64,000 nt of DNA from an uncultured Candidatus Poseidoniales archaeon (GTDB lineage: Archaea; Thermoplasmatota; Poseidoniia; Poseidoniales; Thalassarchaeaceae): positions 115,606 to 179,605 of the forward strand of contig CAZYIX010000001.1 of the NCBI GenBank assembly GCA_964647665.1, written 5' to 3'. The notes beneath the pieces are model-generated. The model saw nothing but the letters and a program-made list of their open reading frames with translations, did no database searches and was not told the DNA's origin. Every line of letters begins with the position of its first letter. Within the stretch, counting starts at the first letter, position 1. Below, piece after piece: positions 32,098-58,061 of this stretch. The translations under genes and the position numbers were made by a program.

Positions 32098-33270
32098 TCA
32101 ATCGAAGCGTTGAACACCGAATCGACCGCCGCGCTGTTCTCTAGCGATATTGAGGGCTTGGCCGAGAATATCTGGCTCCATTTCCCCTTCGACTATTCGG
32201 TCGCCCGCAACTCCAGTGATGATTGCCATCACCTTGATTGTATCACCAAATCCGGGGTCTTGCCTTGCACCGAAAATGACGTTTGCATCTGGAGACAGTC
32301 GCGCAGTCATCAGTTCGACGACCTGACTTGCCTGTTCGAGAGTCATGTATGGCCCTCCGGTAACATGGATGAGAGCACCGGTTGCTCCGTCGATATCTAT
32401 GTCGAGAAGTGGATGATTGAGTGACTCATGAACGACTTCTTCTGGTCCCCGGTCGCTCTCACCGTACAGCATCATGGTGATGCCTCCTCCACTCATGATG
32501 GTGCGAACGTCAGCGAAGTCGAGATTGATGAGACTGGGCAGAGTGATAGTTTCGACAATTCCCTTGACGATTTCCGCGATGAGTTGGTCCATGATGCTGA
32601 ATGCCTCGTCAAGAGGCAAGTTTGGCACATAATGCAGCAGGCGATTGTTGTCAAGAACCAATACAGCGTCAACCGCTTGGCGAAGCAATTCGAGCCCTTC
32701 TAGAGCGCGTCGCATACGTTGGCGCCGTTCAACATGGAATGGAGTAGTGACTACAGCGACGACCAATGCTCCTCCTCGCTTGGCTTCCTCAGCGACTACC
32801 GGCGCGATGCCAGTGCCGGTTCCACCGCCAAGTCCAGCGGTGATGAAGACCAAATCAGCACCATTGACAATCTTCGAAATGACATCTCGACCGGCTTCCG
32901 CACAACGTCGTCCGGTCGAAGGGTCGCCACCCGCACCGAGTCCTCTGGTGATGTGGCGGCCGACCAGCAACTTCTGCATCGCTCGAGTGTGGTCAAGATG
33001 CTGTTTGTCGGTATTGATTGCTACAGTGATTGCACCCTCGACACCAAGATGGGTAATCCGATTCATCGTGTTGTTACCAGAACCGCCGCATCCGCAAATC
33101 AAAATTCTCGGATTTGGAACCCCAAAATTGCCCATTTCATCGTCGAGAAGTGCGGTGGGCTGTTTCTCATCCATGTCTCGCTTCAACTCCGCAACAAGGT
33201 CACCATACGCCCCTCCCGACGTGGCATCTGTATCCTGCTCCCCATCCATGGTCATACCTGCAAGGTCCAA
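32098..33270 (-). CDS. ftsZ: Cell division GTPase FtsZ
   Basis: Tubulin signature GLGGGTGTG (GGGTGTG) and ICGCGGSGNNTMNRI N-terminal nucleotide-binding segment; acidic N-terminal extension. Confidence 0.9.
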   Translation of the reverse strand: MDLAGMTMDGEQDTDATSGGAYGDLVAELKRDMDEKQPTALLDDEMGNFGVPNPRILICGCGGSGNNTMNRITHLGVEGAITVAINTDKQHLDHTRAMQKLLVGRHITRGLGAGGDPSTGRRCAEAGRDVISKIVNGADLVFITAGLGGGTGTGIAPVVAEEAKRGGALVVAVVTTPFHVERRQRMRRALEGLELLRQAVDAVLVLDNNRLLHYVPNLPLDEAFSIMDQLIAEIVKGIVETITLPSLINLDFADVRTIMSGGGITMMLYGESDRGPEEVVHESLNHPLLDIDIDGATGALIHVTGGPYMTLEQASQVVELMTARLSPDANVIFGARQDPGFGDTIKVMAIITGVAGDRIVEGEMEPDILGQALNIAREQRGGRFGVQRFD

Positions 33271-33426
33271 GTCGTTGTTCAGCCTCTATTAACCGTTGTT
33301 GGAGGGGGCCACATCGTAAGAGCGATTTTGGCCCCCTTCAACCAAGCCCGAATCCTCCTCGTGGAGCAAGATTGTCGTGGTCTCCGAGAAATCAAGAAAT
33401 ACAGCGTGGCGGTGGGCGGTTCACTC

Positions 33427-33531
33427 CCGAGCGTAGCATAGCCTGGCTAATGCACCTGACTGTAGACTGTGAAAACACGGTTGTGGAAGGCAGCCATCAG
33501 GGGATCGCTGGTTCAAATCCGGCCGCTCGGA
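33427..33531 (+). tRNA. tRNA-Tyr (anticodon GUA) with ~30-nt intron at the canonical 37/38 position
   Basis: Read directly. Acceptor CCGAGCG/CGCTCGG. D-arm GCAT-AGCCTGGCTA-ATGC. Anticodon stem CCTGA...TCAGG enclosing CTGTAG + 30 nt + A. T-arm GCTGG-TTCAAAT-CCGGC with discriminator A. The 3' half overlaps the end of the opposite-strand CDS 33497..34003. Confidence 0.55.
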
Positions 33532-34003
33532 CCTTCTTACCTTCAGCGCGCGAACGCAGCGCTGCGAGCCGAGTTTTCAAATCTGGAATCTCTAGTGGCT
33601 CATGTAAGCAGGTGCGACAACTATCGATGAGATAGCCGTTTGAGAGTGCCCTTCTGCCGATGATTAGTCGATGTTTCATTCGGCTTCTGTCGGCTAGAGT
33701 AAACTCGACGGACATTTTGCGGCCTCCTAGCCACAAGTCGGTCTGGATTGTCGGCCGCAACGTAACGTGACCTCCTGAGTCCTTGACCCGCCTCCATCCG
33801 GTGAGTGGAGCAAGGATTGGAGTACCCCCAACATCGAGGCGGAATCTAACCCACATTCCTTCGCAGGTTTCCAGTGGTTCCACATTGAGTGCGTGTAGGG
33901 AACAGGTATTGGCTCCTGAGTCCAACTTTGCATATAGCCGGTGGATGCCAAGGTCTGGTACTGCTATCCATTCGCGCCAGCCAACTATCGTCTGCATGTC
34001 CAT
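33497..34003 (-). CDS. Retropepsin-like aspartic protease (PF05618 'putative ATP-dependent zinc protease'/RimB-like)
   Basis: GWREWIAVPDLGIHRLYAKLDSGANTCSLHA matches the PF05618 core, including the DSGA catalytic motif. The last ~11 codons overlap the tRNA-Tyr gene. Confidence 0.6.
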   Translation of the reverse strand: MDMQTIVGWREWIAVPDLGIHRLYAKLDSGANTCSLHALNVEPLETCEGMWVRFRLDVGGTPILAPLTGWRRVKDSGGHVTLRPTIQTDLWLGGRKMSVEFTLADRSRMKHRLIIGRRALSNGYLIDSCRTCLHEPLEIPDLKTRLAALRSRAEGKKVRAAGFEPAIP

Positions 34004-34213
34004 TCATCACCTTGTAAGCCGGCCTGCGCGGTCACGCGCCCTTTCTGAACGTATCGCCTCCAACTGTACATTAACAGCAGCAGTTGGGAGATGGTTGAAT
34101 TCACATTAACTGGTGCGGGAATTATCCCCACTCCTCCTACGGAGGACTTTGGCTCACATCGTCACGGTCATATAGACGGAGCAGGTCGGCGGCTTGCTCC
34201 GAAGGTGGATATC

Positions 34214-34804
34214 ATGACTCGTTCAGTGAATAAGGCAGTCGCGGATATTTGGAAGCGACCCAAAGATGCGCTCCCTTACGACTACCGCCGTGACCGCATG
34301 GCAAAGTGGCGCAGGGAGTCGGTTGTGCACCGAATCGACAAGCCAACTCGCATCGACGCGGCTCGCCGTGTTGGCTACAAGGCCAAGCAAGGTGTTGTGG
34401 TCGTGCGTACACGAGTCCGTCGAGGTGGATTGCGCAAAGGCAAGGTCCACATGAAGCGAAAGCCGTCAAAGGCTGGTATCCTCAAAATCACTATGGCGAA
34501 GTCCATTCAGCGCATCGCTGAGGAGCGTTCCGCCAATAAATACCCGAACCTCGAGGTTCTCAACTCCTACTGGGTTGGCGAGGACGGTCGACACAAATTC
34601 TACGAGGTCATCATGATTGACCCAAGTCACCCCGCAATCAAGGCTGACAAGCAGTTGGGCTGGATTACTGGCAGTCGTCACACCGGCCGAGCCGCACGCG
34701 GCAAGACCAGCGCTGGCAAGCGTGGCCGTGGCCTGCGAAGAAAGGGTAAGGGCGCAGAGAAGATTCGCCCTAGTTTGAAGGCCAACCTGAACCGCGGCAA
34801 GTAA
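34214..34804 (+). CDS. rpl15e: 50S ribosomal protein L15e
   Basis: MTRSVNKAVADIWKRPK start and a basic, R/K-rich body matching L15e. The track start at 34091 adds 41 residues that are not L15e-like; ATG 34214 is preferred. Confidence 0.85.
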   Translation: MTRSVNKAVADIWKRPKDALPYDYRRDRMAKWRRESVVHRIDKPTRIDAARRVGYKAKQGVVVVRTRVRRGGLRKGKVHMKRKPSKAGILKITMAKSIQRIAEERSANKYPNLEVLNSYWVGEDGRHKFYEVIMIDPSHPAIKADKQLGWITGSRHTGRAARGKTSAGKRGRGLRRKGKGAEKIRPSLKANLNRGK

Positions 34805-34866
34805 GCCGCCTTCATCTACGCCCTCGCATCTCTCGTGCCTGCGAAGTTTGATGAGTTGCGCCATTC

Positions 34867-35142
34867 TTGCACCGGCCAATGGGAGAGGCTGAGGTCAGTT
34901 CGCTGCGCGGGATGGCGGTCATCTTGCCTGACGGAAGATTTCTTGGTAATGTCCACGATACTGTTGTAGACACAGAAACCTGGTGTTGTTCGCATTTATT
35001 TGTCGCAGACCCGCCAGAGGAAATGGCCGAGGAGCGCATTCATCTTGCAATTCCATGGCGTTGGGTAAAAGGGGTCAGCGATGTCATTCTTTTGCGTTGG
35101 TTTCCGCCCACACCGATTCCCCGTCACCCTCTGAACCCTTGA
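34867..35142 (+). CDS. Small PRC-barrel-like protein, hypothetical
   Basis: 91 aa. LRGMAVILPDGRFLGNVHDTVVDTET resembles PRC-barrel strands. Weak. Confidence 0.3.
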   Translation: MHRPMGEAEVSSLRGMAVILPDGRFLGNVHDTVVDTETWCCSHLFVADPPEEMAEERIHLAIPWRWVKGVSDVILLRWFPPTPIPRHPLNP

Positions 35143-35151
35143 TATGGGACG

Positions 35152-36333
35152 ATGTTCCCCGATAGTTTGGGTGGTGGCTGCTCACGCGGGCTCCTTCCAA
35201 TTGACGCGAGAGGTGAACCAGTGCTTGAACTCCATGTGCTCGGCACGTCTTCGGCACGTTTCGCTCACGGCCGTGCAGTCTCTGGCTCAGTGTTGTCAAC
35301 TCCGGGCGGCCTCGCTCTAATCGACTGCGGCGAGGGCATGCAGCAGCGCGTTATCGATCATAATCGTGCACTGAAGGCTGCTGGAATTCAAACTCGTACT
35401 CGCCTCTCTCGCGTACGCGCAATACTACTGACGCACGGTCATCTCGACCATTGTTGGGGTGTGCTTCCATTATTGCAAACTCTGGCGTTGGACCGCAGAA
35501 AAGACCCGCTCACCATCATCGGGCCGACCAGCAAAGCAGCACTAAAGTGGGTAGCAGAACATCCTGGTGAATCGCCACCAGAAGGTAGTGGGGTGTATTC
35601 CACTGACCTGGCAATTCAGTGCGCGATGTGGCAGAGCCTTGGCAGCAAGGACGAGGACTTCGGGTATCCGATTGACTGGGTTTTGGTTCCAATCGATGGA
35701 GACGAGCCCTTTGAAGCCCCAGTGCAGCCTCTGGAAGGAGTCACACTGACGATGATTCCTACTCTGCATGGCATACCGTCGTGTGGTTGGCTGGTCGTCG
35801 GTCAAGGCAAATCTGGTCAGTTTGACCGCGACAAAGCGGATTCAGCAAATTTGACCCGAACTGAGAGGAGTCGGCTGGCTGCCGGTGAGGACGTCGAAAA
35901 GGCCGGTGAACTGCTGTTAGCAGCGGAATTTCGTGGACCTCCCCGTTTGGGACGCAGTTTGTTGGTTACAGGTGATACTGCTGCTAGCGTTGCCGGCTTG
36001 CAGCCAGATGCATTGCCAACAACGCCTGATTTGCTAATCCACGAGGCGACTTTCACCGCTGAGAATCAGGAGAAAGCGACGCTGTACAATCATTCGACTG
36101 CAGCTGATGCAGCGCTAGCTGCCACCTCTTGTGGCGCTCGCGCGCTCGGAATGACTCATTTTTCCAGCCGTATAGATAGGCTCAGTCCATCGGTAAGTGA
36201 GGCTCGTGAGCACTTTCGCGGACCAATCTGCGCCTGTTGTGAAGGAGATTGGTTTCACATTGATTCTGAAGGGACCATCACCCACAATGTGCGCTGTGAT
36301 GATGATTGGAACTCCCAGCGATTAGAGACTTGA
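35152..36333 (+). CDS. rnz: Ribonuclease Z / MBL-fold metallo-hydrolase (tRNA 3' processing)
   Basis: LHVLGTSSA...LIDCGEGMQQRV and LLTHGHLDHCWGVLPLL (HxHxDH) match RNase Z motifs I/II. Longer than typical RNase Z (insertions). Confidence 0.7.
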   Translation: MFPDSLGGGCSRGLLPIDARGEPVLELHVLGTSSARFAHGRAVSGSVLSTPGGLALIDCGEGMQQRVIDHNRALKAAGIQTRTRLSRVRAILLTHGHLDHCWGVLPLLQTLALDRRKDPLTIIGPTSKAALKWVAEHPGESPPEGSGVYSTDLAIQCAMWQSLGSKDEDFGYPIDWVLVPIDGDEPFEAPVQPLEGVTLTMIPTLHGIPSCGWLVVGQGKSGQFDRDKADSANLTRTERSRLAAGEDVEKAGELLLAAEFRGPPRLGRSLLVTGDTAASVAGLQPDALPTTPDLLIHEATFTAENQEKATLYNHSTAADAALAATSCGARALGMTHFSSRIDRLSPSVSEAREHFRGPICACCEGDWFHIDSEGTITHNVRCDDDWNSQRLET

Positions 36334-36349
36334 GTCTCTACACACCCGT

Positions 36350-38935
36350 ATGGGCGACCTTCAAAGGTGGATTGAGCAAGCCGCGTCCATGCCTCGCGCT
36401 GCGCGTGCCTCAGCACTCGCCGTTGTTCTGTTGTTGTCAATGCTCACAGCATCTGCTATTACGGTGGCTGACACTTCTGCAAGAGCCACCGCTTGTGCAG
36501 AGACAGATGTGGACGAGTTGCCGGGTTTGTTCAACGTTCTCGACCAAGGTTGCCATCAGATTGACCTTGGATATCTGACCCCCGGACAGATTGTGGAATT
36601 CGACATTTCTGCCGATGATTCATTCGATTTTCTAGTTTTCAATTCAAATGCTCTTACAGTCTACACCAACGACCAATCATACCGAGATAATGCATACTGG
36701 GAAGAGGATACTGTATTCGAGTCCTTGAGCGGCAATGCTCGTTGGCATTGGGCAGTCCCCGAAACCTCTGAGATGAGATGGTATGTCATCCTAGACAACC
36801 TCGATCACCCAGGTGATGATGACCAAGGCGACCTCGGAGGCCTCACAGTAGCAATCGATGTCAACATCAGTTTTCCATCGCAAGGAATTTGGGCGGTTCA
36901 CGACAATTTGGTCCGTCTTGGCATTAACGACCACCAACAGTTGCTTGGACCGAGTGTGCTGACTCTCGATGGTGGAACTCAAGTCTCTATTGAGGCCATT
37001 GCCTTGCAAGGCGAGCCTGACCTATTCATACTGACAGCTGCTCAGCGAGACACCTACCTTGCTGGTAATGGTGCACAGTTTCGGGTCAGTGGCGCGGACC
37101 TATTCTCAATCACGGCAGACGGTTCTGTAGCATGGACTGTGCCGTCGGAACACTCCGGTGAAGGTGTGTATCTATTTGCAGACAATGAGGATGGGCCTAC
37201 TGGCGGCGGTGATGGGGATAGCGATGCTGCAGTTACCGTCATGGTGACTTTGTTACCAGTGATTTCAGCGACCATCGATGACGACTTGCAAGGTGACTTG
37301 GATGTTGGAGATGTTGCGACGGTCACCGCGAATAACACCCCCAATTTGTCGCAACAGGTAGACGAGGATGCATACGAATGGGATTTGGACGCTGATGGAG
37401 AGATTGATGCAACCGGCGCATGGGCCGACGTATCTTTCGACACCCCCGGAGACCATGTTGTCACACTGAAGGTCGCTGGGGTGGACGGGCGTACCGACTC
37501 TACCGACCATACGATTTCAGTCAAGGACCAGACCGGACCCACCGCAATCATCAGTGGTAGCGATGACCTTATTCGGGGCTTTGGTGAGACGTTTAGCCTG
37601 TCCAGCAATTCACAGGATAATTGGATGATTGACCGTGAGGAATGGTGGGTGGATGGCTCACTATTCCAGCAGGACAACGGCACCCAGAATACCTTCACTC
37701 ACTCTTTCAGCGTGGGCGGTGCTCATCACATTGAGTTGAAGGTCTACGATGGAGAATCACTGTTTGACAATGACACTGCCATGGTTACTATTCAGGACAC
37801 TACCAGACCAATCGTAGGTTCAATCGAAGGCCCAAGTGAATTGACCGCAGGTGATAGTGGAACATGGAGCCTGCAGGCTAACGATGGAGAATCAGCCACC
37901 CTCTCATGGTCATGGGACTTCGACAAGGATGACGGTGCTAACGATATGGATGCTACTGGCTCTCAGGCAACTTGGACCTTTAGCAAGGCTGGCAATTATT
38001 GGATAACCTGTACGGTGACAAATGAGGAAAACATCTCCACTCCTACTGAAATGTTGGTTGTCGTCAAGGCGGCCCCATCTTCTGGACTTGGAGCCGGCAT
38101 AGATTTCGCCGGGCCAGCTTTCGCATTATTGTTGGTAATCGGCCTCGCTGTCGGCGGATTCTTCGGATGGCGGCGTTGGCGCGATGCACAGGCTCTCAAA
38201 GTATTGGCAAATGAGGAAATAGCTCGGATTACTGCCGAGCAGGAATCCACTCAAGAACCGACGCAGGAGGAGCAGTTGTCTATGTTCGCGCCCGCTGGTT
38301 CCCGTGTCGTTTCCAGTCGTTCGGGTGCAGAGACTGAGATGGCAGAAATCGCCGGTGCTGGCTATGGCGCATCAGAAGCAGTAGAGAGTGCAGCAATGCT
38401 TGGTGTTCAGACTCAGGTGAGTGATGGCGATTCAGAACTTCTCGCCGCCTTCGATGAGCCTGAAATCAAGCCGGAACCCGCAGTAACACCGGTACAGAAG
38501 GCAGCGGCGCAAGAGCCTGCGCCGGTCGCCGAAAAGCCGGCTGCTGGAGGGGCGACCGTTATCTCCAGTGGAATCGAACTCCCATCAGTGATGAAGCAGG
38601 CAGTTGAGACACCCGCTGAAGTTGCAGCGGCGGCACCTGCACCGGCACCAGAACCTGCCGTAGAGCCTGCGCCAGCACCCGCACCGGCACCAGCCGTTGA
38701 GTCCACACAGCCTACTCCCGCACCTGCCCCCACACCAACCGCAGAACCAACACCCGCACCTACTCCCGTTGCAGAACCAACACCCGCACCCGCAGCAGTG
38801 GCAGAGGGTACTATCGAGGTGATTGGCGCATGTGCCTCATGCGGACAGCGATACGCTGTGGATATGCCAAGTTCAATCAATGAGGCCAGAATAGATTGTC
38901 CGAAGTGTGGTTCTCGCAACAATATCCACAGATGA
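36350..38935 (+). CDS. Large surface protein: signal peptide, PKD domains, single TM, cytoplasmic Pro/Ala-rich linker and C-terminal C4 zinc ribbon
   Basis: Signal peptide (ARASALAVVLLLSMLTASA). PKD motifs (YEWDLDADGEID...HVVTLKV; WSWDFDKDDGANDMDATG...YWITCTVTNEEN). TM FALLLVIGLAVGGFFGW + RRWR. PAPAPEPAVEPAPAPAPAP linker. C-terminal CASCGQRY-x17-CPKCGSRN. Confidence 0.7.
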   Translation: MGDLQRWIEQAASMPRAARASALAVVLLLSMLTASAITVADTSARATACAETDVDELPGLFNVLDQGCHQIDLGYLTPGQIVEFDISADDSFDFLVFNSNALTVYTNDQSYRDNAYWEEDTVFESLSGNARWHWAVPETSEMRWYVILDNLDHPGDDDQGDLGGLTVAIDVNISFPSQGIWAVHDNLVRLGINDHQQLLGPSVLTLDGGTQVSIEAIALQGEPDLFILTAAQRDTYLAGNGAQFRVSGADLFSITADGSVAWTVPSEHSGEGVYLFADNEDGPTGGGDGDSDAAVTVMVTLLPVISATIDDDLQGDLDVGDVATVTANNTPNLSQQVDEDAYEWDLDADGEIDATGAWADVSFDTPGDHVVTLKVAGVDGRTDSTDHTISVKDQTGPTAIISGSDDLIRGFGETFSLSSNSQDNWMIDREEWWVDGSLFQQDNGTQNTFTHSFSVGGAHHIELKVYDGESLFDNDTAMVTIQDTTRPIVGSIEGPSELTAGDSGTWSLQANDGESATLSWSWDFDKDDGANDMDATGSQATWTFSKAGNYWITCTVTNEENISTPTEMLVVVKAAPSSGLGAGIDFAGPAFALLLVIGLAVGGFFGWRRWRDAQALKVLANEEIARITAEQESTQEPTQEEQLSMFAPAGSRVVSSRSGAETEMAEIAGAGYGASEAVESAAMLGVQTQVSDGDSELLAAFDEPEIKPEPAVTPVQKAAAQEPAPVAEKPAAGGATVISSGIELPSVMKQAVETPAEVAAAAPAPAPEPAVEPAPAPAPAPAVESTQPTPAPAPTPTAEPTPAPTPVAEPTPAPAAVAEGTIEVIGACASCGQRYAVDMPSSINEARIDCPKCGSRNNIHR
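38741..38800 (+). repeat. 30-nt tandem direct repeat (2 copies) inside the Pro/Ala-rich linker coding region
   Basis: gcagaaccaacacccgcacc occurs at 38741 and 38771 with a 30-nt period (encodes AEPTPAPxxV twice). Confidence 0.5.
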
Positions 38936-38943
38936 TGGCTTTG

Positions 38944-38977
38944 CGAGGCACCTAGGGAACCTAGGTTGCCTCGTGCG
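38944..38977 (+). terminator. Strong stem-loop immediately after the PKD-protein stop (putative transcript 3' end)
   Basis: GCGAGGCACCTAGG-gaa-CCTAGGT(T)GCCTCGTGC near-perfect 14-bp inverted repeat, 9 nt after the stop codon. Confidence 0.4.
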
Positions 38978-39025
38978 CAGGAGTCGAACACCCTTTAGGC
39001 ACATTAGGGGCCATCAAGGGTTGAG

Positions 39026-42000
39026 ATGGGCGAAGCCGCTGCACGAATGGTCCTCGCTGCACCCGAAAGGCGCAGCGTAAACGGGTTGTGGATTGCAGTA
39101 TTGCTCGTCTTGCCATTAATTGCTCCTTTTTCTGCCGCAGAAGCGGCAGATTCGGTCCGAGCCGACGATTTCGGCATCATCGAGGAATTGCATACCGTGC
39201 TGAATCAGCGGGGACAGTTGCTAGACAGTGAACAGGTGCGGCTGATTGCAGAAGGGCAACTCGCTCCAGTAAAGAACGGAGTTCGTCCTGCTGGTTCGTC
39301 CGATGCGCTTGCTAACGTCGACGAAATTTTCACTGGGATTTCGATGAGAGAATCAGTACAGGCAGACCCGATTCATCCTGCTCCGTTCCAGATACTGCTT
39401 GGAGATGAAGACGTTGCACCCGGATGGGTTGACAACGTTTGGGAGACACTCATCAACATCACTGACTACGTGATCTGGGTCCAGTTCCAAACTGAAGATG
39501 ATGGCCCTCGCCACGATTCTTTCACTACTGTGACCTTCTCTGCCTCTTTGTTCAGCCTATTCAGCGGAGACCCAATGATTCATGACGTGGATGTCGATGG
39601 TGATGGTGATGACGATGTTCGTATTGGCATCAGCATCTCTTGGGATCAAAATAATGGGTGGGGGCTATCAGGAGATGAGATTCTTCCGACTCAGTTGTGG
39701 ATAGAGCCAACCATCCAATATCAGGTCGACGTAATCGATGATTCGGACCCGATGTGGGGTGTTATGGAATTCCTGCATGTTTCATTGCTCAAATCATTTG
39801 CATATTCTTCTAACCCCTTTGAACCCGGTGAGTCCTATGTTTGGGTCATCGATTCAAATTTTACAATTCCTCCAACTGATTGGTCGCTAGACATTGGCTT
39901 CGACAGATTCTGGTTTGACCTCGGTGATTCAGCCCAATCGTTCATTCTCGCATTAACGGGAGGCATCTTTGGCGGAATTCCTGATGAGGGCGACATAACC
40001 GTCGCTGCCCTTGCAGCGCCATATACAGTACAGATTGAGAATTGGGGACAGACAAACTGTCCTGATGACTACGATCCAATGGCCGACCACGGCGCCGGGT
40101 CATTGGACCACCGCTGCCGTATTGGAGTCGGATTCGGCTACGCTCACTTTTCCCCACCAGATGGCGGCGATCGCGAATTATGGGAGCTGGCCTACATTGA
40201 GATGGCCCTGCATCCAGTGGTCAATTCAACACGCCTACCCGCTGAGGTAGACGTTACAATCCGTAACGACAACCTGCTCTCAACTGGTCCTAGCGACATT
40301 GGTGAGAAGAGTCTCACCTCCATCGAGTATTACGCAGACCGTCGCTGCGACATGTGGATTCACTTCCATGAGGACCGAAGCAACTACACGGAAAGTGCTG
40401 GTCAAGAATATGGCAATATCACCGAATCTATTGGCTGGCTGCGTGACCTTCCGTCTGGTACACTGACCAATGAAGAAATATCTCGTACTTTCCGTATGCT
40501 CGGCTCAGAAAGCAGCCCGGCGTTGCCGGGGCAGTTGCCGAGTCGACTTTCCTTTATCCTCGGAATCAAAAATTTCACCCGCGACACAACCCCCAATGTC
40601 GATGACCCTACCCTGCCGGTCAACCCCGCACATCCGCCGAATACACTGTTGTTAGTACGCTCAACCCAACCGGTTGGGAGCGTAGACTACGTTTCTTACT
40701 TCCAACGAGAGGGAGTATCTGCAGACCATCGGCTTTTGACGGTACATGTGGAGGATATTCCAACCGGACTTGTGTTATACGGTGATTTCTGGCTCGGTGG
40801 TTCAGATGATGGAGAAGTATCGACGGATACCTCTGACCTCGATTTTTTCTCTAGAATGATTGATTTCACAATTCTTGCGGTAGTCGACATTTTCCTCGAT
40901 GTGTCCAACACAATCAATGGCATTCCTAGTTCAATTGTCGATGTGATTGGTGGAAGTGCCGGTACCAGTGCAGTGGGGATGAGTGTCAATCTTGAGATGT
41001 ATACCTCATTCGAGTCTGACAGAATTCCTATGGCTTTGGGACAGGCGGACATGTCGCTTGGCTCCAGTGTGCATCCGGTGGCTACTGGAGATCACCTACT
41101 GCTCGCCAACAACACCCAATTCAATACCGTGGTGGGTAGGCATGGGCAGACTGAGCCGTTGGTTCCAATTTCAGTTAGTCTGAGCATTTCTGGCCTAAAG
41201 GCTGCTCATCTGGTCGATGATACCGATACTAATGAACAACGAGTTCAGATTACGATGAATGGCGGAGCACCGATGCGGATGCTATTCCTAGAACACGAAG
41301 GTACCGACCTTGCCAATTCTGACTTCCAAATTGTGCGGATATCGAATATGCCATCCAACCTTGCGGTGATATCTACTCCAACCACCATCACTTACAATTC
41401 GGTTGGAATCCCTGAGATTGTTTACTGTGGTAAAGAAGGCAACATCAGACAGGCGGTAGTACTGGAATCGATGCCGGGTGAATTCACCATGACTGTTTCT
41501 GATGACATTTCTTGGGCCTCAGAACAGCCAATTGGGTCCATTACGATGATGATTTCCGATTCAAGCCAGCCACGAACAATGGATGGTGATCACTTCTTAT
41601 TCGCCCGTGATTCGAATTCTGACAGCATTACACTCTCTACCCGGATGACCGGACTTCGTGAAATTGGCTACATCTCTGCTGCTCAACCGGGAATTCCCGG
41701 ACCCGACGGTCGAGGAACTGCATATCTGGTCGGACCGGGTAATCGCACCTTCTCTGCGGTTGTCATCGATGAAGTTGATCATGATTCAGTAGCAGACGGA
41801 TTGAACGCACACGTCTTGCTCGACCCGATGCCAGGCACTGTTTCACTTGAAGTTCCTGAGAGTTCAACAGGATCGAGCATAGATGTGCCTGAATTCACCA
41901 CCGAAGGTGGTTTGGCAGGTGTTGCATTCTTCCTCGGTGGATTCACCGGCTTTGGAGACAGTGTCAATAAGATGCTTGGGGACCTTGTTACCAGCGTAAC

Positions 42001-43372
42001 TGGAGGCAATGGAAGCGATGCTGCAGACCAGTTGTCATTTGGCATGCAACTAGCTGCTGATAGTGCATTTGATCTCGTCGTCGATGCATCCCAGGGCAGT
42101 ATGGGCTTGAATGAGCCAGAATGGGTACATGGCCTATCTATCACCGCAGAGGAAGCACCAGACAATCACACCGGCTTCCATCTTCGCGGTTGGCTGCCAG
42201 AAATGCCACCAGCAATTGACGTGTCCATAGGTTACCAGAACCTCTCTGTCACCGAACAATGGGATGTCAGCGTCAACATGGTAGGGTGGGAGCCAGCGAG
42301 GCCAGAATTCATCCTACAAGTTGACGGTTATCAGGGTCAAGATTTGCATATGACAATGCTTGGATTTGATACCGGAAAACCCACCGATATAAGCATTGAT
42401 ACACAGACAACAATCGACTTCCGCTCAGTCATTCCTCAACTAACTGTAGTTAGCCAATATGAGTTGAGTCAACGGCTCGGTGCTGTGCATGCAACTTACC
42501 TAGACCGTGAGGCTCAAACTCGCTACGAGATGTTGGTACAAAACATTCCCAAACACATTGACATCGCCTCCTCGCTGGGCTCTACCATCTCGATTGGAAT
42601 GTCAGTGCCAGAGGAGGACAGAGCGGCTGGGCTTGCTCTGGATTCGATGATGATCGAGATGACCTCCTTTTCCGAAGGAATGTGGTGGCCTGCTACAGTT
42701 TTCTTGCATGAATTGCCTGGTGAGATGAATCTGACAATGGAATCTTCAGATATTTTCGATATTACCAAGGAACTTTCCTTCCAAGGCATGCCCACGCTTT
42801 CTTATTCATCCAGTGGTGAGGGCATGGATATGTTCATTTCAACAGCTGGGCGAGCGATTAACTCCAAGGGCGACACTCTGCTGATGGCAGAGAATCTAGC
42901 CAGCCATATGAGTATTGAGCCAACCGAAGACTTCGGTCTGAGGGTGCGTAGCAGTGGTGATGGCATTGGCCGACTATACCTGCGCCAGACCGATATGCCG
43001 ATGCAACCGGGAATCCGGTTAGTACAGATGGAAGCTGTCGGTGAAAATCTGAAAAGCGCGACAATTCACTCCTATACACTCGGTGGCGTCTATCCCATCA
43101 TAGAAATCAGTGATGTCAAAGGTGGCCGAATGATTGCTACCGCTCGAGCCGATGTTAACCTCGGGTCGTGGACGTTAGATGGTCGCGCTGTCCTCATTGA
43201 TGCGCAAGCAACCAGTGGTATTCCAACCGGTTCCACAGTTTCGATGAATGGTGTGGCTGCTGACCTTTCCCTGCTCAATGTGCTTGGGTTTGACGGTTCG
43301 AGCACCCACTATTTGCTTCCGGAACCACTAACCAGCGGCCTTGCGACCGGAATCGCAACTTTGTTTTGGTGA
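39026..43372 (+). CDS. Giant secreted protein (1448 aa), no recognisable domain
   Basis: ATG start and N-terminal signal-like segment (GLWIAVLLVLPLIAPFSAAEAADS). Acidic Thr/Ser/Asp-rich composition, uninterrupted 4.3-kb ORF, no catalytic motif recognised. Confidence 0.7.
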   Translation: MGEAAARMVLAAPERRSVNGLWIAVLLVLPLIAPFSAAEAADSVRADDFGIIEELHTVLNQRGQLLDSEQVRLIAEGQLAPVKNGVRPAGSSDALANVDEIFTGISMRESVQADPIHPAPFQILLGDEDVAPGWVDNVWETLINITDYVIWVQFQTEDDGPRHDSFTTVTFSASLFSLFSGDPMIHDVDVDGDGDDDVRIGISISWDQNNGWGLSGDEILPTQLWIEPTIQYQVDVIDDSDPMWGVMEFLHVSLLKSFAYSSNPFEPGESYVWVIDSNFTIPPTDWSLDIGFDRFWFDLGDSAQSFILALTGGIFGGIPDEGDITVAALAAPYTVQIENWGQTNCPDDYDPMADHGAGSLDHRCRIGVGFGYAHFSPPDGGDRELWELAYIEMALHPVVNSTRLPAEVDVTIRNDNLLSTGPSDIGEKSLTSIEYYADRRCDMWIHFHEDRSNYTESAGQEYGNITESIGWLRDLPSGTLTNEEISRTFRMLGSESSPALPGQLPSRLSFILGIKNFTRDTTPNVDDPTLPVNPAHPPNTLLLVRSTQPVGSVDYVSYFQREGVSADHRLLTVHVEDIPTGLVLYGDFWLGGSDDGEVSTDTSDLDFFSRMIDFTILAVVDIFLDVSNTINGIPSSIVDVIGGSAGTSAVGMSVNLEMYTSFESDRIPMALGQADMSLGSSVHPVATGDHLLLANNTQFNTVVGRHGQTEPLVPISVSLSISGLKAAHLVDDTDTNEQRVQITMNGGAPMRMLFLEHEGTDLANSDFQIVRISNMPSNLAVISTPTTITYNSVGIPEIVYCGKEGNIRQAVVLESMPGEFTMTVSDDISWASEQPIGSITMMISDSSQPRTMDGDHFLFARDSNSDSITLSTRMTGLREIGYISAAQPGIPGPDGRGTAYLVGPGNRTFSAVVIDEVDHDSVADGLNAHVLLDPMPGTVSLEVPESSTGSSIDVPEFTTEGGLAGVAFFLGGFTGFGDSVNKMLGDLVTSVTGGNGSDAADQLSFGMQLAADSAFDLVVDASQGSMGLNEPEWVHGLSITAEEAPDNHTGFHLRGWLPEMPPAIDVSIGYQNLSVTEQWDVSVNMVGWEPARPEFILQVDGYQGQDLHMTMLGFDTGKPTDISIDTQTTIDFRSVIPQLTVVSQYELSQRLGAVHATYLDREAQTRYEMLVQNIPKHIDIASSLGSTISIGMSVPEEDRAAGLALDSMMIEMTSFSEGMWWPATVFLHELPGEMNLTMESSDIFDITKELSFQGMPTLSYSSSGEGMDMFISTAGRAINSKGDTLLMAENLASHMSIEPTEDFGLRVRSSGDGIGRLYLRQTDMPMQPGIRLVQMEAVGENLKSATIHSYTLGGVYPIIEISDVKGGRMIATARADVNLGSWTLDGRAVLIDAQATSGIPTGSTVSMNGVAADLSLLNVLGFDGSSTHYLLPEPLTSGLATGIATLFW

Positions 43373-43377
43373 AAATC

Positions 43378-44067
43378 ATGTCTGACGAGGAAGATATTGA
43401 AGGCATGTTCACTTTGGTGGGCTCACCTGATAATCCCGACCTTGAGGAGTCAGATTTGTCCGATAGTCCTACCCTGACCGACCGGGCTGAACAGATTTCT
43501 GAAGAAAAGAAACAGGAGATCACTCACGACGAGGGTTTTACCGCATCAATCGAGGAAATCGAACTCGCTGAGAAGGCTCTAGAGACCGCTAGGTTGGTTG
43601 CCCGGCAGGTCACTCCATTCCGGGTTATTCTCGCTACAGTTTTCATGGCTGCGTTGATGTTCAGCGTCTTCGCCATTGGTTTCTGGGCAGTGCCCAGAGA
43701 TGCGGTTTCAGTCGAGGTGGCTTATCTTCAGGGTGGCCCCGGTCAGGTCGTGCTGCTGCAAGTGCACAACTTGGGTAGCCGAGGTATTGGCAGCGTCAAT
43801 GTTGAGGCTGAGTTCCAAACTCTAGATGGAGAAGTACTGAATTCCACTCGTTTTACGCGTAGTTCCATTCCTGCTCACACCTCTGTTGCTGGTGATGATC
43901 TTGAGATAATGGTCTCAGGAGTTTCTGTTTGGGATGAGTACATCATTGTCGTGAGATTAGAATACGATTACTATGATGGCTCAGTTGAGGAGCAATCGTG
44001 GAGATATCAGGTCGGTGAATGGTCTAGTGAGCATTTCACTTTGAAAGCCGACCGACACTGGTTCTGA
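43378..44067 (+). CDS. Type II (N-in) single-pass membrane protein with CARDB-like ectodomain, coupled to giant gene
   Basis: Acidic cytoplasmic N-terminus, TM (VILATVFMAALMFSVFAIGFWAV), and a ~140-aa C-terminal domain with VHNLGSRGIGSV CARDB-like motif. Start is 5 nt after the upstream stop (track TTG 43366 overlaps it). Confidence 0.5.
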   Translation: MSDEEDIEGMFTLVGSPDNPDLEESDLSDSPTLTDRAEQISEEKKQEITHDEGFTASIEEIELAEKALETARLVARQVTPFRVILATVFMAALMFSVFAIGFWAVPRDAVSVEVAYLQGGPGQVVLLQVHNLGSRGIGSVNVEAEFQTLDGEVLNSTRFTRSSIPAHTSVAGDDLEIMVSGVSVWDEYIIVVRLEYDYYDGSVEEQSWRYQVGEWSSEHFTLKADRHWF

Positions 44068-44145: not shown

Positions 44146-47100
44146 ATGAGGAAGTCAATATTGCTGATGACGCTGTCGATTTTGTTGTTGGCTAGCCTAT
44201 CTCCGCTGCTTACTCAGCCAACTGAGTCATACGGTTCTACTGCGATTGATGATGATTCTCGCAGCGTTGAGAGAGTATCAATTCCGGCTGTCGCTGATGC
44301 AATCAGTGATATTGAGCATTCGCAGTTATTACTGGGCGTCGAGATATCTCGCCAATCCAACGCAGACACCCACCTCGGAATGTGGACGACAAGTGGCCTT
44401 TCCTCAAACATGGACATTCCAACGCAACTCCGTTTACCACGTAATGACATCGCCTTGGCCATAGTTGATGGTGACGTAGGATTGTGGGATGCTCGCAGTT
44501 CTCTGTCAGAGGTTTCTGGGCTTGAGGTGCGTGCCCACATCCCCCCATCTGGGTTCTTGCTGCAAGGGTCTGCCCAGTCGCTAGAAGCAGCAAGAGGTGC
44601 TGAAGGTGTGCTGTCAGTCCATGCCGTGCCTTTGGCATTCATGCTCGATAGTGAATTGATTGAGATGTACATCGATGCACAATCAGTTGTCAGTTCTGGC
44701 CTCGCTGAAGGCGGCGAGCCGGTGACCTCGGTCAGGATGCATGGTTGGCGCCTCGCTGAGACAGCAATGCCACTCGACCATCTTTCTCTGTCAGGATACA
44801 ATTTCGACCTCGATGCGAGAGCAGATGAACTGCTCATCGACCATCGCGATATTGACAATGGACGTCACGATGGTCTGCTTCGACTCGTTGACCTACCAGC
44901 CGCGGCAGCCTCTCCATCGCTCTCATGGCTGAGCCTTGAGCCGGTTTGGATGCCACATAACAACGAAGCCTTCGAGAATATCCACGCCGATGACGTGGAG
45001 AATTTCTTTCTCACTGGCCTGAATGGCTCTGGACAACTGGTAGCGGTTGCAGATTCAGGAATAGACCGTGACCATGGCGACTTCGGCCAGCGAATTCAGC
45101 ACGTAGAATCGGTTACTTGGGGCGACTCAAGCACTGAAGATACCCACTCAGGTCATGGAACTCACGTGGCCTGCACGGTTCTCGGTGACGGCTTCAGAGG
45201 AGCATATGCCGGAATAGCTCCACAGGCGGAACTGTGGTTCCAAGCCATGGAAGATGACTCTACTGGTGATTTCAGTGGAGCGAGCATGGACTACATGCTG
45301 CGGACTGCTTACGAAGGCGGGGCTCACATTCACACAAATTCATGGGGCGCTCACCAGAATTACGGTGAATACACCTCTAGCAGTGAGGACGTCGACAGCA
45401 GGACCAGCCAGTATGACCAATACTGGTCCTACGATGGTTTGGTAGTGTTGGCTTCGGCTGGAAATGATGGACCTGATTCTGACACAGTGTCTCCTCCTGC
45501 AACAGCAAAGAATGTCATCGCAGTTGCCAACACTCACAATCGCGGCGGCGGCGCCCCTGACACTCTATCGCAGAGCAGTAGCCGCGGCCCTACCGATGAT
45601 GGCCGCATCAAGCCAGACGTTTCTGCCCCGGGCGCTTGGGTTCGCTCATGTCGTTCACAAGATGCGACAGAAACTTCTGGAGCATCATGGTCTAGTCAGT
45701 GGTATCTGGAATACTCCGGCACTTCGATGGCCGCTCCCAACGCGGCAGGCGCAGCCACCTTGATTCGCGAATACCTGACTGAAGTTGCAGGCCGCCCATC
45801 ACCACAGGGCGCTCTAATCAAGGCGATGTTGATTCTTGGCGCTGAGGATATTGGTAGCAGAAATATCCCGAATAACGACGAAGGATGGGGTCTGATTAAT
45901 TTGGCAAATTCACTGTTGCCCGGCTCAGATACCGGAGTTTGGGTAGCAGACCGTTACTATGTGCGCTCAGGCAATACCGAGGAGTTCCTGTTCAATGTCT
46001 CTCGCAGCAACACACCGTTCAAGGTGGTGCTAGCATGGTCAGATTATCAGGGGAATTCATGGGCCAGCAAGCAGTTGCAGAACGACCTTGATTTGGTGGT
46101 AATTGCCCCCGATGGTACCGAATACTTGGGTAATGACTTCTCGAGCGGTCGTTCGACTACCGGTGGAACTAGAGATTCGACCAATAACGTCGAGGTCACG
46201 TTGGTCGACAATGCAGACATGGGCATTTGGACTGTCCGAGTGACCGATGTCAGTCACGGTGGCCAGCGTAGTGAGCAGTCGTTTGCAGTTGCAGTTCGTG
46301 GCGCAGGAGTCAACGACCTGCGCAGTGACCCCCTACCTCTTGCCGAAACCTTCACCCTCTCAACTGAGATTCCTCAAGTCAACGATGTGACCACAATCTC
46401 CATCCAAATTCAGAATCAAGGTGGTGGTCCTGCCAATGGGTTGCCGGTACAGGCAATAGCAGGCGGTCAGAACCTCGGAGAAGTCACCCTTGAACTCGGC
46501 CCCGGCATGATTCGTTGGGCAACATGGGATTGGACTCCAATTACAGAGGGAGAGCAGGCAATCACCATCCGAGTCGACCCATATGATGTAGTATCTGAAA
46601 TTGATGAAGCCAACAACCTATTCCAGACAACAGTTGCAGTCAGCGCTCCGGGTGTGCGCATTTCGACTGATGAAACCACCAAACGTCTCGTTGACCCATC
46701 GACGACCAGTACGTCTTGGGATTTTGTTCTGAAAAACACTGCTTTACTGCCGACAAACGCCAGTGTTTCAGCGACGAAACCAGTATTCCTCACTACCGGA
46801 CAGGAAATGACTTCCTGGTTCACTTCGTTTAATCTCACTACTTTCCAACTGAACGGTTCTGAGGAGTCGAGAGTCGGTTTCACGCTTGTGCACTCATCTC
46901 CTACTTCGCCCCCGTCTCCTGGATATTACCAATTCACAGTTACAGCGATGGACGTTGACAATAATGTTGCATTCCCTCTAACGTTGACTCTCGATGTACC
47001 AGTACTACCTGACGTCTCATTCCAAATGCCATTCACCACCCTTTCCGTTTCACCGGTTTACCCGACCGAATTCACTGTTGAAATCCTCAACGATGGCAAT

Positions 47101-51790: not shown

Positions 51791-52276
51791 ATGGCGACTG
51801 TTCCTGAGGAGTATTTGTCATTGGCTTTGATGACTTTGATTGGCATTGGTTTCCCGCTTGGCGGTTTCGTAATGTCGAGGTTTGTTCGACCGATGCCGGA
51901 CCCGAATGACCCAACTCGTTTGCGCTCTTTCTTGCTGCGAGGATACGAGACTGACCAGTCGCTCTATGTCAGACGCCTCAGCACCTACGAATGTGGTGCT
52001 GACCCGGTCGGAGATGCGATGATTGACTTCCACTTCCAGTACTATTGGTATGCCATTATTTTCCTTGTGTTTGACATTGCTTTCATGTTCCTTGCTTTCG
52101 GAGGCATAGTCGCAGCGAATGCTGACCATGCACTACCAGACTACGTACAGGGACAATTGCAGGCAGGCAGCGTGGCAGAAGCACAGGGCGCGTTGGTGAG
52201 TATGTCGGTGTTCCTCGCTCTAATGTCTCTTGGCGTCTGGTACGCGTTCCGTAAGCGAGGTAGAATCTACATCTGA
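51791..52276 (+). CDS. nuoA: NADH-quinone oxidoreductase subunit A
   Basis: First gene of the nuo string; 3 TM helices; conserved YECG motif (LSTYECGADPVGDA). Longer than typical NuoA. Confidence 0.75.
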   Translation: MATVPEEYLSLALMTLIGIGFPLGGFVMSRFVRPMPDPNDPTRLRSFLLRGYETDQSLYVRRLSTYECGADPVGDAMIDFHFQYYWYAIIFLVFDIAFMFLAFGGIVAANADHALPDYVQGQLQAGSVAEAQGALVSMSVFLALMSLGVWYAFRKRGRIYI

Positions 52277-52285
52277 GGTGCTTGA

Positions 52286-52879
52286 ATGAGTGATGGACAG
52301 AATTACACCGCTTTCAGCAGCCGAGCGCTGCTCGATGTAGTCGGGGACCTCAACGACGAGGTGTTGGAAGCGAGTCGCATGAAGGACTTCATCGCTGTTC
52401 TTGGCGGCAGGTTCCTCAACTGGAGCCAGCGTAAATCGCTATTCCCTCTGCATCTGGGAATCAAGTGCTGTGCTTTGGAGATGGCAGCAGCTGGCGCAAG
52501 CCGCTTCGACGCCGAGCGTTTTGGCGTCGTATTCCGTTCTAGCCCACGTCAGTGCGATGTGATGCTGGTCAACGGTCCGATATCAAAGAAATTCGCTGAC
52601 CCAATCGTTCGACTTTGGGAGCAGATGCCTGAACCGAAGTGGTGTATCGCAATGGGCGAGTGTGCTATCTCAGGTGGACCATATTTCCAATCCTACAACA
52701 TTCTCGAAGGTGTTGACACGGTTATCCCGGTTGATGTGTACATTCCGGGCTGCCCTCCGCGGCCTGAGGCATTGATTGATGGATTTGGCAAACTGCGTGA
52801 GAAGATCATTCGAATCGGCGCAGTACCAAGTGGAGATTCTGAGAGTAGAGGTGCTCCAATCATCGTATCGGACGATTGA
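52286..52879 (+). CDS. nuoB: NADH-quinone oxidoreductase subunit B
   Basis: N2 cluster ligands CCALEM...GECAISGGPY...IPGCPPRPEAL. Confidence 0.9.
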   Translation: MSDGQNYTAFSSRALLDVVGDLNDEVLEASRMKDFIAVLGGRFLNWSQRKSLFPLHLGIKCCALEMAAAGASRFDAERFGVVFRSSPRQCDVMLVNGPISKKFADPIVRLWEQMPEPKWCIAMGECAISGGPYFQSYNILEGVDTVIPVDVYIPGCPPRPEALIDGFGKLREKIIRIGAVPSGDSESRGAPIIVSDD

Positions 52880-52888
52880 GGTGTTACT

Positions 52889-53551
52889 ATGGGAATGGCA
52901 GTCAGTAATAAGCAGTCAACAAAAGCAGTAGAAGCTGTTGTTGAAGCTGCGAACGCTGAATTCAGCGACGTACTGAGTGCTGAAGTCCGCAATCAAACCG
53001 GTGGTTCCCGCAAGTGTGCATATGTTTTCTTGCAAGTTGAGGCAGATTCATGGAGAAAGGTTGCCAAGTGGCTGAAGCGGTCGCAAGGCATTGATTTCTG
53101 TGCGATGATTACCGGTATCCATTGGCCAGATGCCTCAGACATGAGTTGGCAACTAGTCATTCACCTGATGCGATTTGCTGTTTCAAATCCACCGGTGGAT
53201 AATGGCCAAGTCAATCCGGTACCCAGTGTTGCTTCAAACCTATCTGGCGCGGATATTCCAATCCAGGTTGAGGTCAGCATCAAGTTGCCCGATGGTCGTA
53301 ATCCAAGCGTTCCGAGTGTCGCTGATATTTGGGTTGGTGCGGATTGGAATGAGAAGGAGACTTGGGATTTGGTTGGCATCGAGTTTGAAGGACATGAGGG
53401 AATGCGCAGGGTACTGCTTCCGCACGACTCACCCACAGGCTACCATCCTCTACAAAAGCAGCACAAGTTGCGCTATCACGATTTCAACGAGATGTACGAT
53501 GACCCGCAGGGCTTCATGCGCAAGCCTGTGGACATAGGGAAGGTCAAGTGA
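52889..53551 (+). CDS. nuoC: NADH-quinone oxidoreductase subunit C
   Basis: EKETWDLVGIEFEGHEGMRRVLL matches the NuoC ER.xxDxxGxxFxGHP signature. Confidence 0.8.
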   Translation: MGMAVSNKQSTKAVEAVVEAANAEFSDVLSAEVRNQTGGSRKCAYVFLQVEADSWRKVAKWLKRSQGIDFCAMITGIHWPDASDMSWQLVIHLMRFAVSNPPVDNGQVNPVPSVASNLSGADIPIQVEVSIKLPDGRNPSVPSVADIWVGADWNEKETWDLVGIEFEGHEGMRRVLLPHDSPTGYHPLQKQHKLRYHDFNEMYDDPQGFMRKPVDIGKVK

Positions 53552-53563
53552 GGAGGTAATCAA

Positions 53564-54700: not shown

Positions 54701-54701
54701 G

Positions 54702-56150: not shown

Positions 56151-56162
56151 GGAGGGAGAGAA

Positions 56163-57143: not shown

Positions 57144-57145
57144 AA

Positions 57146-58049: not shown

Positions 58050-58061
58050 GGAGGAATAGGA

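Follow-up and report, generated by a model that had tools for sequence, protein, structure and literature searches.

The window, a 64,000-nucleotide stretch of DNA from an uncultured Candidatus Poseidoniales archaeon of the family Thalassarchaeaceae (contig CAZYIX010000001.1, positions 115,606 to 179,605), contains a gene for a putative surface protein with PKD domains, a single transmembrane (TM) helix and, behind this helix, a long acidic tail that ends in a predicted zinc ribbon (ZnR). Analysis of the tail suggested a membrane-tethered protein-docking module that would link the surface protein with a partner or an assembly in the cytoplasm; an S8 subtilase encoded in the same gene cluster may take part in this coupling. 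We give this explanation about an even chance of being correct. The PKD ectodomain, TM helix, RRWR cluster, low-complexity tail and terminal set of four cysteines (Cys4) had been described in an earlier sequence-only reading of the window, and all of them were recovered in the same positions.

Domain layout of the PKD surface protein

The gene and its encoded features are located in the window as follows (positions, strand, feature).

36350-38935, +, PKD surface protein with zinc ribbon tail, whole gene (861 amino acids [aa] from the first ATG; list of open reading frames [ORFs])
36389-36469, +, N-terminal basic stretch and hydrophobic segment, aa 14-40 (Sec-type signal peptide or signal anchor)
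36482-37249, +, N-terminal ectodomain, about aa 45-300, about 255 aa (invariant columns in alignments A1 and A6)
37250-38074, +, three tandem PKD/Ig-like domains, about aa 301-575 (Pfam and family profile)
38114-38170, +, single TM helix PAFALLLVIGLAVGGFFGW, aa 589-607 (hydropathy)
38171-38254, +, RRWR positive-inside cluster and juxtamembrane helix, aa 608-635 (charge count and AlphaFold2 [AF2])
38267-38287, +, conserved motif EEQLSMF, aa 640-646
38336-38356, +, conserved motif EMAEIAG, aa 663-669
38435-38458, +, conserved motif ELLAAFDE, acidic and amphipathic, aa 696-703
38564-38584, +, conserved motif SSGIELP, extended, aa 739-745
38612-38803, +, Pro/Ala/Glu/Thr-rich spacer, aa 755-818 (gapped in most orthologs)
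38810-38932, +, predicted C-terminal zinc ribbon, aa 821-861 (knuckles CASC at 38831-38842 and CPKC at 38897-38908)

An identical 861-aa protein is present in public data (P0001), together with 15 orthologs at 44-77% identity. The NCBI copy (P0126) is shorter, with 848 aa, and the N termini of most orthologs match M14, so the real start is probably M14 (nucleotide 36389). The 19-residue Kyte-Doolittle window exceeded 1.6 at aa 17-43, the sequence MPRAAR stands just before the hydrophobic segment, and ortholog N termini read MRHAR followed by a hydrophobic stretch. The N-terminal ectodomain carries the conserved motifs W.W..P, DN..H..D..G..GG and DN...GP.GGGDG, and a search for relatives of aa 45-300 in Pfam and among PDB sequences returned none. 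The adjoining region was assigned to PKD domains by PF18911 PKD_4 (E = 8e-14; 51.9 bits versus a cutoff of 27) and PF00801 (E = 3.7e-10; 40.1 versus 23.5), and the family profile matched the PKD domains of ColH/ColG and KIAA0319L at three successive positions. An antisense ORF of 192 aa (38413-38991, -), rich in Gly, Ala and Val, mirrors the Pro/Ala-rich linker as its reverse complement and is almost certainly no gene.

Conservation of the tail in a Poseidoniales protein family

A pattern scan of GTDB with one genome per species revealed 201 genomes encoding a relative, of which the best 80 were inspected. All of these best 80 of 201 are labeled as metagenome-assembled genomes (MAGs) of Poseidoniales or Marine Group II (MGII) or carry a broader archaeal label (Euryarchaeota, Methanobacteriota, Thermoplasmatota). 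The closest genome locus (93% identity) is that of a Thalassarchaeaceae (MGIIb) MAG, and MAGs of Candidatus Poseidoniales (MGII) are the source of the copies and relatives in public data. In total, 85 loci were surveyed, 77 of which include the 3' end of the gene; charge and linker statistics were calculated from 76 distinct orthologs.

The window protein ends with ...GACASCGQRYAVDMPSSINEARIDCPKCGSRNNIHR, and its knuckles are arranged as CASC-x18-CPKC, 8 residues before the stop; the spacing given in the sequence-only reading, CxxC-x17-CxxC, has to be corrected by one residue. The pattern CxxC-x18-CPxC followed by 8 to 10 terminal residues was found at each of the 77 loci that include the gene end. 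Since the Cys4 set is kept in all of them, the objection that the cysteines might not be conserved in orthologs no longer applies. In an alignment of 27 tails reaching down to 20-30% identity, the four cysteines, P840 and P851 are the only invariant columns. The mean pairwise identity was 0.40 for the ribbon; the two regions of the ectodomain gave 0.40 and 0.37, and the linker gave 0.26. The conservation of the ribbon thus equals that of the folded ectodomains and exceeds that of the linker. Four of the seven cysteines of the window protein lie within its last 34 residues. Together with the motif at 77 of 77 loci and the ribbon identity matching that of the ectodomains, this bears out the earlier statement that the arrangement is not due to chance.

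The linker contains four short motifs that are conserved to different extents. The pattern [DE][DE]Q..[MIL][FYW], which covers EEQLSMF, was present in 71 of the 76 orthologs, and its Q is nearly invariant in alignment A4. In EMAEIAG, the residues I, A and G are invariant among closer orthologs, as is LL.AF.E in ELLAAFDE; in SSGIELP, G and P are invariant in alignments A1 and A2. The Pro/Ala spacer before the ribbon is longer in the lineage of the window than in most aligned orthologs, the extension being due to a 30-bp repeat. This repeat (38721-38805, +) has a 30-bp period, occurs in 2.8 copies and encodes TPAPxPVAEP-like decapeptides.

A HMMER search of 1.84 billion representative proteins with a profile of the whole tail returned 61 matches. 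Apart from P0067, a spurious match caused by a repeated IAGIG motif, these were orthologs, either full-length (757-881 aa) or as C-terminal fragments. A promiscuous or mobile tail module was rejected, as no other ectodomain in this search bears the tail. The search for homologous tails that had been suggested earlier therefore ended in a single ortholog family. Within the 85 loci, no further ORF beyond the PKD and S8 families shows the design of a TM helix followed by a C-terminal zinc module. Database entries of the family are named "hypothetical," "PKD repeat protein," "RpoP" or "RNA-binding Zn-ribbon (DUF1610)"; the last two labels derive from the ribbon alone.

Membrane topology

Hydropathy analysis of the window protein revealed only two hydrophobic segments, aa 17-43 and aa 579-608, and the mean Kyte-Doolittle value of the TM segment in the 76 orthologs was 2.71. 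Lys plus Arg averaged 3.11 per 15 aa after the TM segment versus 0.39 before it, and all 76 orthologs have more of these residues after than before. The PKD domains are positioned on the N-terminal side of the TM helix and the Cys4 site on the opposite side, which fits an N-out, C-in protein; sites of this kind, with four cysteines, are typically found in the reducing environment of the cytoplasm. The hydropathy and charge statistics fit a type I topology with the PKD side outside the cell and the tail, including its ribbon, predicted to be cytoplasmic.

The linkers of the 76 orthologs contain no cysteine among 13,315 residues. Their composition is 14% Glu, 7% Asp, 12% Ala, 12% Ser and 10% Pro, so that Asp and Glu together account for 21%. 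In the window protein, 216 residues separate RRWR from the first cysteine of the ribbon. The linker had been described as about 230 residues of low complexity; its Ala/Pro/Glu-rich character was confirmed, but it is shorter and holds the four conserved motifs. Taken together, the signal-like segment, the single later TM helix, the charge distribution, the acidic and cysteine-free linker, the invariant Cys4 set and the AF2 ribbon agree with the proposed order of ectodomain, TM helix and cytoplasmic zinc ribbon.

Across the orthologs, 163-324 residues follow the TM helix, the folded ribbon included. This long conserved tail ruled out a sortase or archaeosortase sorting signal and a cleaved TM segment, and the earlier concern that the helix might be a cleaved internal segment was thereby answered. 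No PGF-, PEF-, PFE- or PEP-CTERM signal was recognized, with PFE_CTERM scoring 11.8 bits versus a cutoff of 24. A location of the C terminus outside the cell, or an origin of the motif by chance, misannotation or misassembly, has next to no probability in our judgment and is largely refuted. The topology comes from simple hydropathy and charge analysis, which leaves such a reading some room; against it stand the positive-inside pattern in 76 of 76 orthologs, the cytoplasmic habit of Cys4 sites, the motif in 77 of 77 independent assemblies, and an identical protein in several public data sets.

Structural model of the tail and affinities of the ribbon

The ribbon was modeled with AF2 from an 18-sequence alignment. 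The model, with a mean predicted local distance difference test (pLDDT) score of 91.9, contains four strands, and its two CxxC knuckles are located at beta-hairpin turns, as in the zinc ribbon fold. Together, the motif and this modeled fold predict zinc binding. In an AF2 model of the whole tail (27 sequences), the ribbon reached a pLDDT of about 94 and the linker outside its short helices about 50, and this low-scoring part is read as probably disordered. The TM end and the juxtamembrane segment were modeled as a helix (aa 604-634; pLDDT, 79-92), and short helices were predicted on the conserved motifs EEQLSM (639-645), EMAEI (661-667) and SELLAAF (694-701). SSGIELP was assigned no secondary structure, and the Pro/Ala/Glu/Thr spacer (aa 755-818) had pLDDT values of about 50-65.

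Comparison of the window ribbon with curated models gave 25.6 bits for Zn_ribbon_8 (PF09723; cutoff, 34.4), 20.9 bits for the FmdB model CxxC_CxxC_SSSS (TIGR02605; cutoff, 31.3), 19.1 bits for Zn_ribbon_4 (cutoff, 30.3) and 13.8 bits for MJ0042_CXXC (TIGR02098; cutoff, 20.9). Among 18 diverse ribbons of the family, Zn_ribbon_8 was the commonest match, being found with 17, and the best-scoring curated model (best E = 4.3e-8); at E < 0.01, Zn_ribbon_4 was matched by 8 and Zn_ribbon_5 by 2 of the 18. A sequence-profile search of the PDB returned RpoP (4qiw_P; E = 0.007), ZitP (E = 0.094) and the ZnR of GltJ (7zok_A; E = 1.1), all of them marginal. Membership in a curated ribbon family was rejected, as the Pfam, NCBIfam and PDB profile results all lie under cutoff or significance. 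Because every curated model stayed below its cutoff and the PDB matches were marginal, the domain is regarded as a bona fide but generic zinc ribbon whose fold gives no pointer to function. It shares the layout C..CG..F.V...(10-18)...CP.CG with the Zn_ribbon_8/FmdB family. FmdB-family proteins are small, soluble and of unknown function, and they are not known as tails of exported proteins. A LITAF-like membrane-inserted ribbon was also considered and rejected: the 18 inter-knuckle residues, GQRYAVDMPSSINEARID, are polar, and weak matches occurred in 3 of the 18 members.

Signalling to nucleic acid had been among the suggested functions of the tail. The ribbon has a mean net charge of -1, and the linker contains the 21% Asp plus Glu given above; this acidity of ribbon and linker argues against direct nucleic acid binding. 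The same evidence bears on a related scenario, in which a protease, perhaps the neighboring S8 enzyme, would cut off the ectodomain and a subsequent intramembrane cleavage would free the tail to control transcription or translation, in the manner of SREBP/S1P-S2P or of anti-sigma factors. An S8 protease is indeed encoded in the same conserved cluster, the best weak matches of the ribbon are RpoP (4qiw_P) and TFIIS-type ribbons, and public pipelines attach the labels RpoP and "RNA-binding Zn-ribbon." The RpoP-type matches lie far under the curated cutoff, however (20.4 bits versus 89), no DNA-binding domain accompanies the acidic ribbon and linker, no intramembrane protease is encoded in the neighborhood, and the zinc tail of the subtilase would be left unexplained. 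We consider proteolytic release of this kind very unlikely.

Proposed role of the tail

From the anatomy, the conservation, the sequence evidence on topology and the predicted fold, we infer protein binding by the tail, with the identity and purpose of the partner being equally conjectural. In the docking explanation introduced above, the signal-like segment would export the N-terminal domain and the three PKD domains, and one helix would anchor both in the membrane. The cytoplasmic tail would then begin with a basic juxtamembrane helix, continue as an acidic, mostly disordered linker with four motifs, and end with the Cys4 ribbon. Binding of at least one cytoplasmic protein would fall to the ribbon and the linker motifs, the length and flexibility of the linker allowing the ribbon to extend away from the membrane. 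Such coupling could serve the positioning, clustering, assembly or regulation of the products of the five-gene envelope cluster described below, and the co-encoded S8 subtilase, with its own zinc tail, may be coupled likewise.

Several points weigh against docking. No partner was identified, and the cluster encodes no obvious soluble cytoplasmic protein. In the AF2 model of the tail, no linker motif was docked onto the ribbon, and SSGIELP was unstructured. The topology was deduced from hydropathy and charge statistics, and the prediction of zinc binding from the Cys4 motif and the AF2 model. The tail is specific to its family, and the search of 1.84 billion proteins thus provides no domain-shuffling evidence for an independent adaptor.

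Poseidoniales are among the most abundant archaea of surface oceans; to our knowledge, the order has no cultured member, and its cell envelope is essentially uncharacterized. The family is now defined in at least 201 species-level genomes, in a surface cluster of about five genes beside housekeeping genes, and it has a conserved, predicted cytoplasmic handle. The 41-residue ribbon and the four short motifs are a concrete bait for an inside partner, which would shed light on the positioning, assembly or regulation of an adhesin-like surface protein and of a large protease at the cell surface. If the tail is only a structural anchor, the gain is a well-delimited protein family of limited importance beyond it.

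A second predicted zinc module on the neighboring subtilase

The sequence-only reading had stated that the same design recurs in the subtilase gene downstream. A TM helix, a linker and a Cys-rich end were found there, but the end is a C4HC3 tail rather than a plain ribbon. Its parts are located as follows.

48379-48450, +, subtilase TM helix, aa 1412-1435, followed by PRKQ
48463-48648, +, subtilase linker of 62 aa, rich in Ser, Thr, Ala and Pro
48649-48768, +, subtilase Cys-rich C4HC3 tail, CWGC-x10-CPSC-GARYH-x6-C-x7-CKNC

The general pattern, CW.C-x9-11-C..CGARYH-x4-7-C-x6-7-C..C, comprises seven Cys and one His, with CGARYH invariant. It was matched in 31 downstream S8 genes; at locus L083 the first two Cys pairs were matched, and at L087 the tail was recognized by direct reading. 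A profile search with the subtilase tail returned 14 matches, and all of the 10 that were read are C-terminal fragments of S8 orthologs. Since the C4HC3 set offers eight ligands, the tail probably forms two zinc sites and not a plain ribbon. It may be a cross-brace binuclear finger resembling RING or PHD domains, which a surface protease of an archaeon would carry in the cytoplasm. In comparison with RING/PHD cross-braces, its H-to-C spacing is 4-7 versus 2; Prok-RING_1 was matched with E = 0.48, and DZR scored 17.1 bits versus 27.3.

Alignment of the two tails with hhalign placed the PKD-protein ribbon on CPSC...CKNC, i.e., on the second and fourth Cys pairs of the subtilase tail, with 86% probability. 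The x18 spacing is the same in both, and CG.RY is common to the two tails of the window. The tails may be related, with the reservation that a Cys/Gly-driven alignment is easily inflated. This similarity is relevant to an explanation without any separate partner, namely that the ribbon, perhaps together with the subtilase C4HC3 module, would oligomerize or cluster the membrane proteins of the gene cluster at the cytoplasmic face, or that it would act in biogenesis as a fast-folding cytoplasmic stopper, fixing the topology and stabilizing the anchor. Zinc modules on two of the five proteins of one conserved cluster, the paired or related appearance of these modules (the hhalign result, the common spacing and CG.RY) and a cluster devoid of a soluble partner gene are all in keeping with self-association. 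A mere stopper, on the other hand, would make a 160-320-aa linker with conserved motifs needless, and the hhalign likeness may, as noted, stem mostly from Cys and Gly. Overall, we regard self-association or a role in biogenesis as rather unlikely.

A more far-reaching version of docking is that both zinc modules are the cytoplasmic ends of one Poseidoniales envelope machine acting on a shared intracellular partner; its extreme form would be a proteolytically released regulator tail. We consider this unlikely. If it were true, surface adhesion or proteolysis would be linked to the cell interior physically or by signals, as an archaeal counterpart of the coupling by ZitP and GltJ.

Comparison with known membrane-tethered zinc ribbons

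ZitP consists of a ZnR, a linker, a TM helix and DUF3426, and its cytoplasmic ZnR binds the polar scaffold PopZ (PMC5182065). In ZitP, found in Caulobacter and other alpha-proteobacteria, the zinc_ribbon_5-type ZnR is N-terminal, the topology is type II without a signal peptide, the linker has about 60 residues, and DUF3426 lies outside. The PKD protein, in contrast, bears a signal peptide-like segment, an acidic linker of 160-320 aa and a ribbon at the extreme C terminus, with Zn_ribbon_4/5 and MJ0042 below cutoff. We know of no PopZ in the host archaeon. MJ0042-type proteins (PF13717/PF13719) have an N-terminal ribbon, and the ribbon considered here forms the last 41 residues, after the TM helix.

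GltJ (AgmX) of Myxococcus xanthus consists of a ZnR, a disordered linker, a GYF domain, a TM helix and a periplasmic domain. Its ZnR is docked on a motif of the linker until MglA-GTP displaces it, whereupon it recruits MglB (PMC11135422). Like the PKD protein, GltJ combines a cytoplasmic ZnR, a long disordered linker with motifs and one TM helix in a protein of a conserved cluster, which in the case of GltJ encodes an envelope-spanning machine for surface adhesion (PMC11135422). Unlike the PKD protein, it has the opposite orientation, a GYF domain and the defined partners MglA, MglB and AglZ. A comparable switch can be envisaged for the Poseidoniales tail, whose ribbon would dock on a linker motif and be freed when a cytoplasmic factor binds that motif, giving two states. 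The inventory of parts speaks for such a mechanism, as ZnR, disordered linker with discrete motifs, TM helix and outer domain are those of GltJ (PMC11135422). It is at odds with the AF2 model of the whole tail, which shows neither a strand nor a high-confidence contact between a linker motif and the ribbon, and with the reversed order of the parts, the missing GYF domain and the MJ0042-type models below cutoff. A GltJ-like switch accordingly has only a slim chance in our view.

Comparative genomics has repeatedly brought up fusions of zinc ribbons to membrane-associated proteins (PMC11237479). In ZnR-PspC and YdjG, the ribbon is N-terminal to the TM segment, and in YdjL a band-7 protein carries it at the C terminus; no fused-ribbon example cited there combines a signal peptide, a PKD ectodomain, a TM helix, a long acidic linker and a C-terminal ribbon (PMC11237479). 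A literature search for a family of this architecture in MGII or other archaea returned none, and no curated Pfam or NCBIfam model exists for it, in agreement with the earlier remark that it is not a described family. The docking tail proposed here would parallel ZitP and GltJ in its logic, by analogy and with reversed orientation. The novelty therefore lies in orientation and context, as a TM-tethered cytoplasmic ZnR with an outer domain is already known in bacteria. If the docking explanation is true, coupling through ZnR, linker and TM helix, so far bacterial and in the opposite orientation, extends to archaea.

Genomic organization of the surface cluster

The gene of the PKD protein is the first of a five-gene surface cluster, all genes of which lie on the plus strand. 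The other four genes are listed below.

39026-43372, +, cluster gene 2, envelope protein of 1448 aa, N terminus with a signal-like segment, C terminus hydrophobic after PEP
43366-44067, +, cluster gene 3, type II membrane protein of 233 aa with an acidic cytoplasmic N terminus, a TM helix and a small outer domain
44146-48816, +, cluster gene 4, S8 subtilase with CARDB and NPCBM_assoc (Pfam)
48813-51656, +, cluster gene 5, Ig-like repeat protein of 947 aa, choice-of-anchor T (NF041740; Pfam Ig-like)

Analysis of the flanking regions revealed FtsZ (-), L15e, a PRC-barrel protein and a metallo-beta-lactamase-fold (MBL) protein upstream (32098-36333) and a nuo operon of the 11-13-subunit type downstream (51791-63784). 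The order L15e-PRC-MBL, PKD-Zn gene, gene for about 1,450 aa, gene for about 190-240 aa, S8-Zn gene is kept down to 29-34% identity, with a locus GC content ranging from 52% to 69% across the lineages that keep it and with small insertions in two loci. The protein sizes across lineages are about 1,450 aa for gene 2, about 190-240 aa for gene 3 and about 900-950 aa for gene 5. The L15e-PRC-MBL flank recurs at most loci examined. FtsZ is located upstream at four of six places (the window, L001/L002, L003 and L086, and not L004 or L087), and the fifth gene was seen in the window, L001 and L003.

The position of gene 2 is kept in L001, L003, L004, L086 and L087, and its orthologs were located at 12433-16761 in L001, 5858-10261 in L003, 15285-19547 in L086 and 7367-12145 in L087. 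Pfam and NCBIfam scans of the 1448-aa protein gave no match. The protein ends with ...YLLPEPLTSGLATGIATLFW before the stop, and its orthologs end alike, with PEP, EP or DP followed by roughly 13 hydrophobic residues and without a basic tail. Such a C terminus looks like a sorting or anchor signal of an undescribed type.

Gene 3 is kept in position at all loci examined. The cytoplasmic N-terminal motif EEDIEGMFTLVGSPDNPDLEE of the 233-aa protein is limited to some lineages of the order, the N terminus of the others reading MGLLEK; a helix with AHE.LE before the TM segment is kept more widely than EEDIEGMFTLVGSPDNPDLEE. A motif shared between the PKD-protein tail (EEQLSMF) and this neighbor (EEDIEGMF) was considered and rejected as superficial, the neighbor's motif being confined to part of the order. 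The 947-aa product of gene 5 scored 97.6 bits against NF041740 (cutoff, 70), and its C terminus comprises a TM helix and a short, very acidic tail (SDEEELEEDEEFDED) without a zinc module.

A divergent ortholog of the PKD protein (P0034; 30% identity) and the same cluster were found in L086 (ENA ERZ26167216, ctg495766, 3,002,195 bp), of which the fetched 22-kb stretch has a GC content of 69%. The size of this contig and the GC content of the stretch are above what is usual for Poseidoniales genomes.

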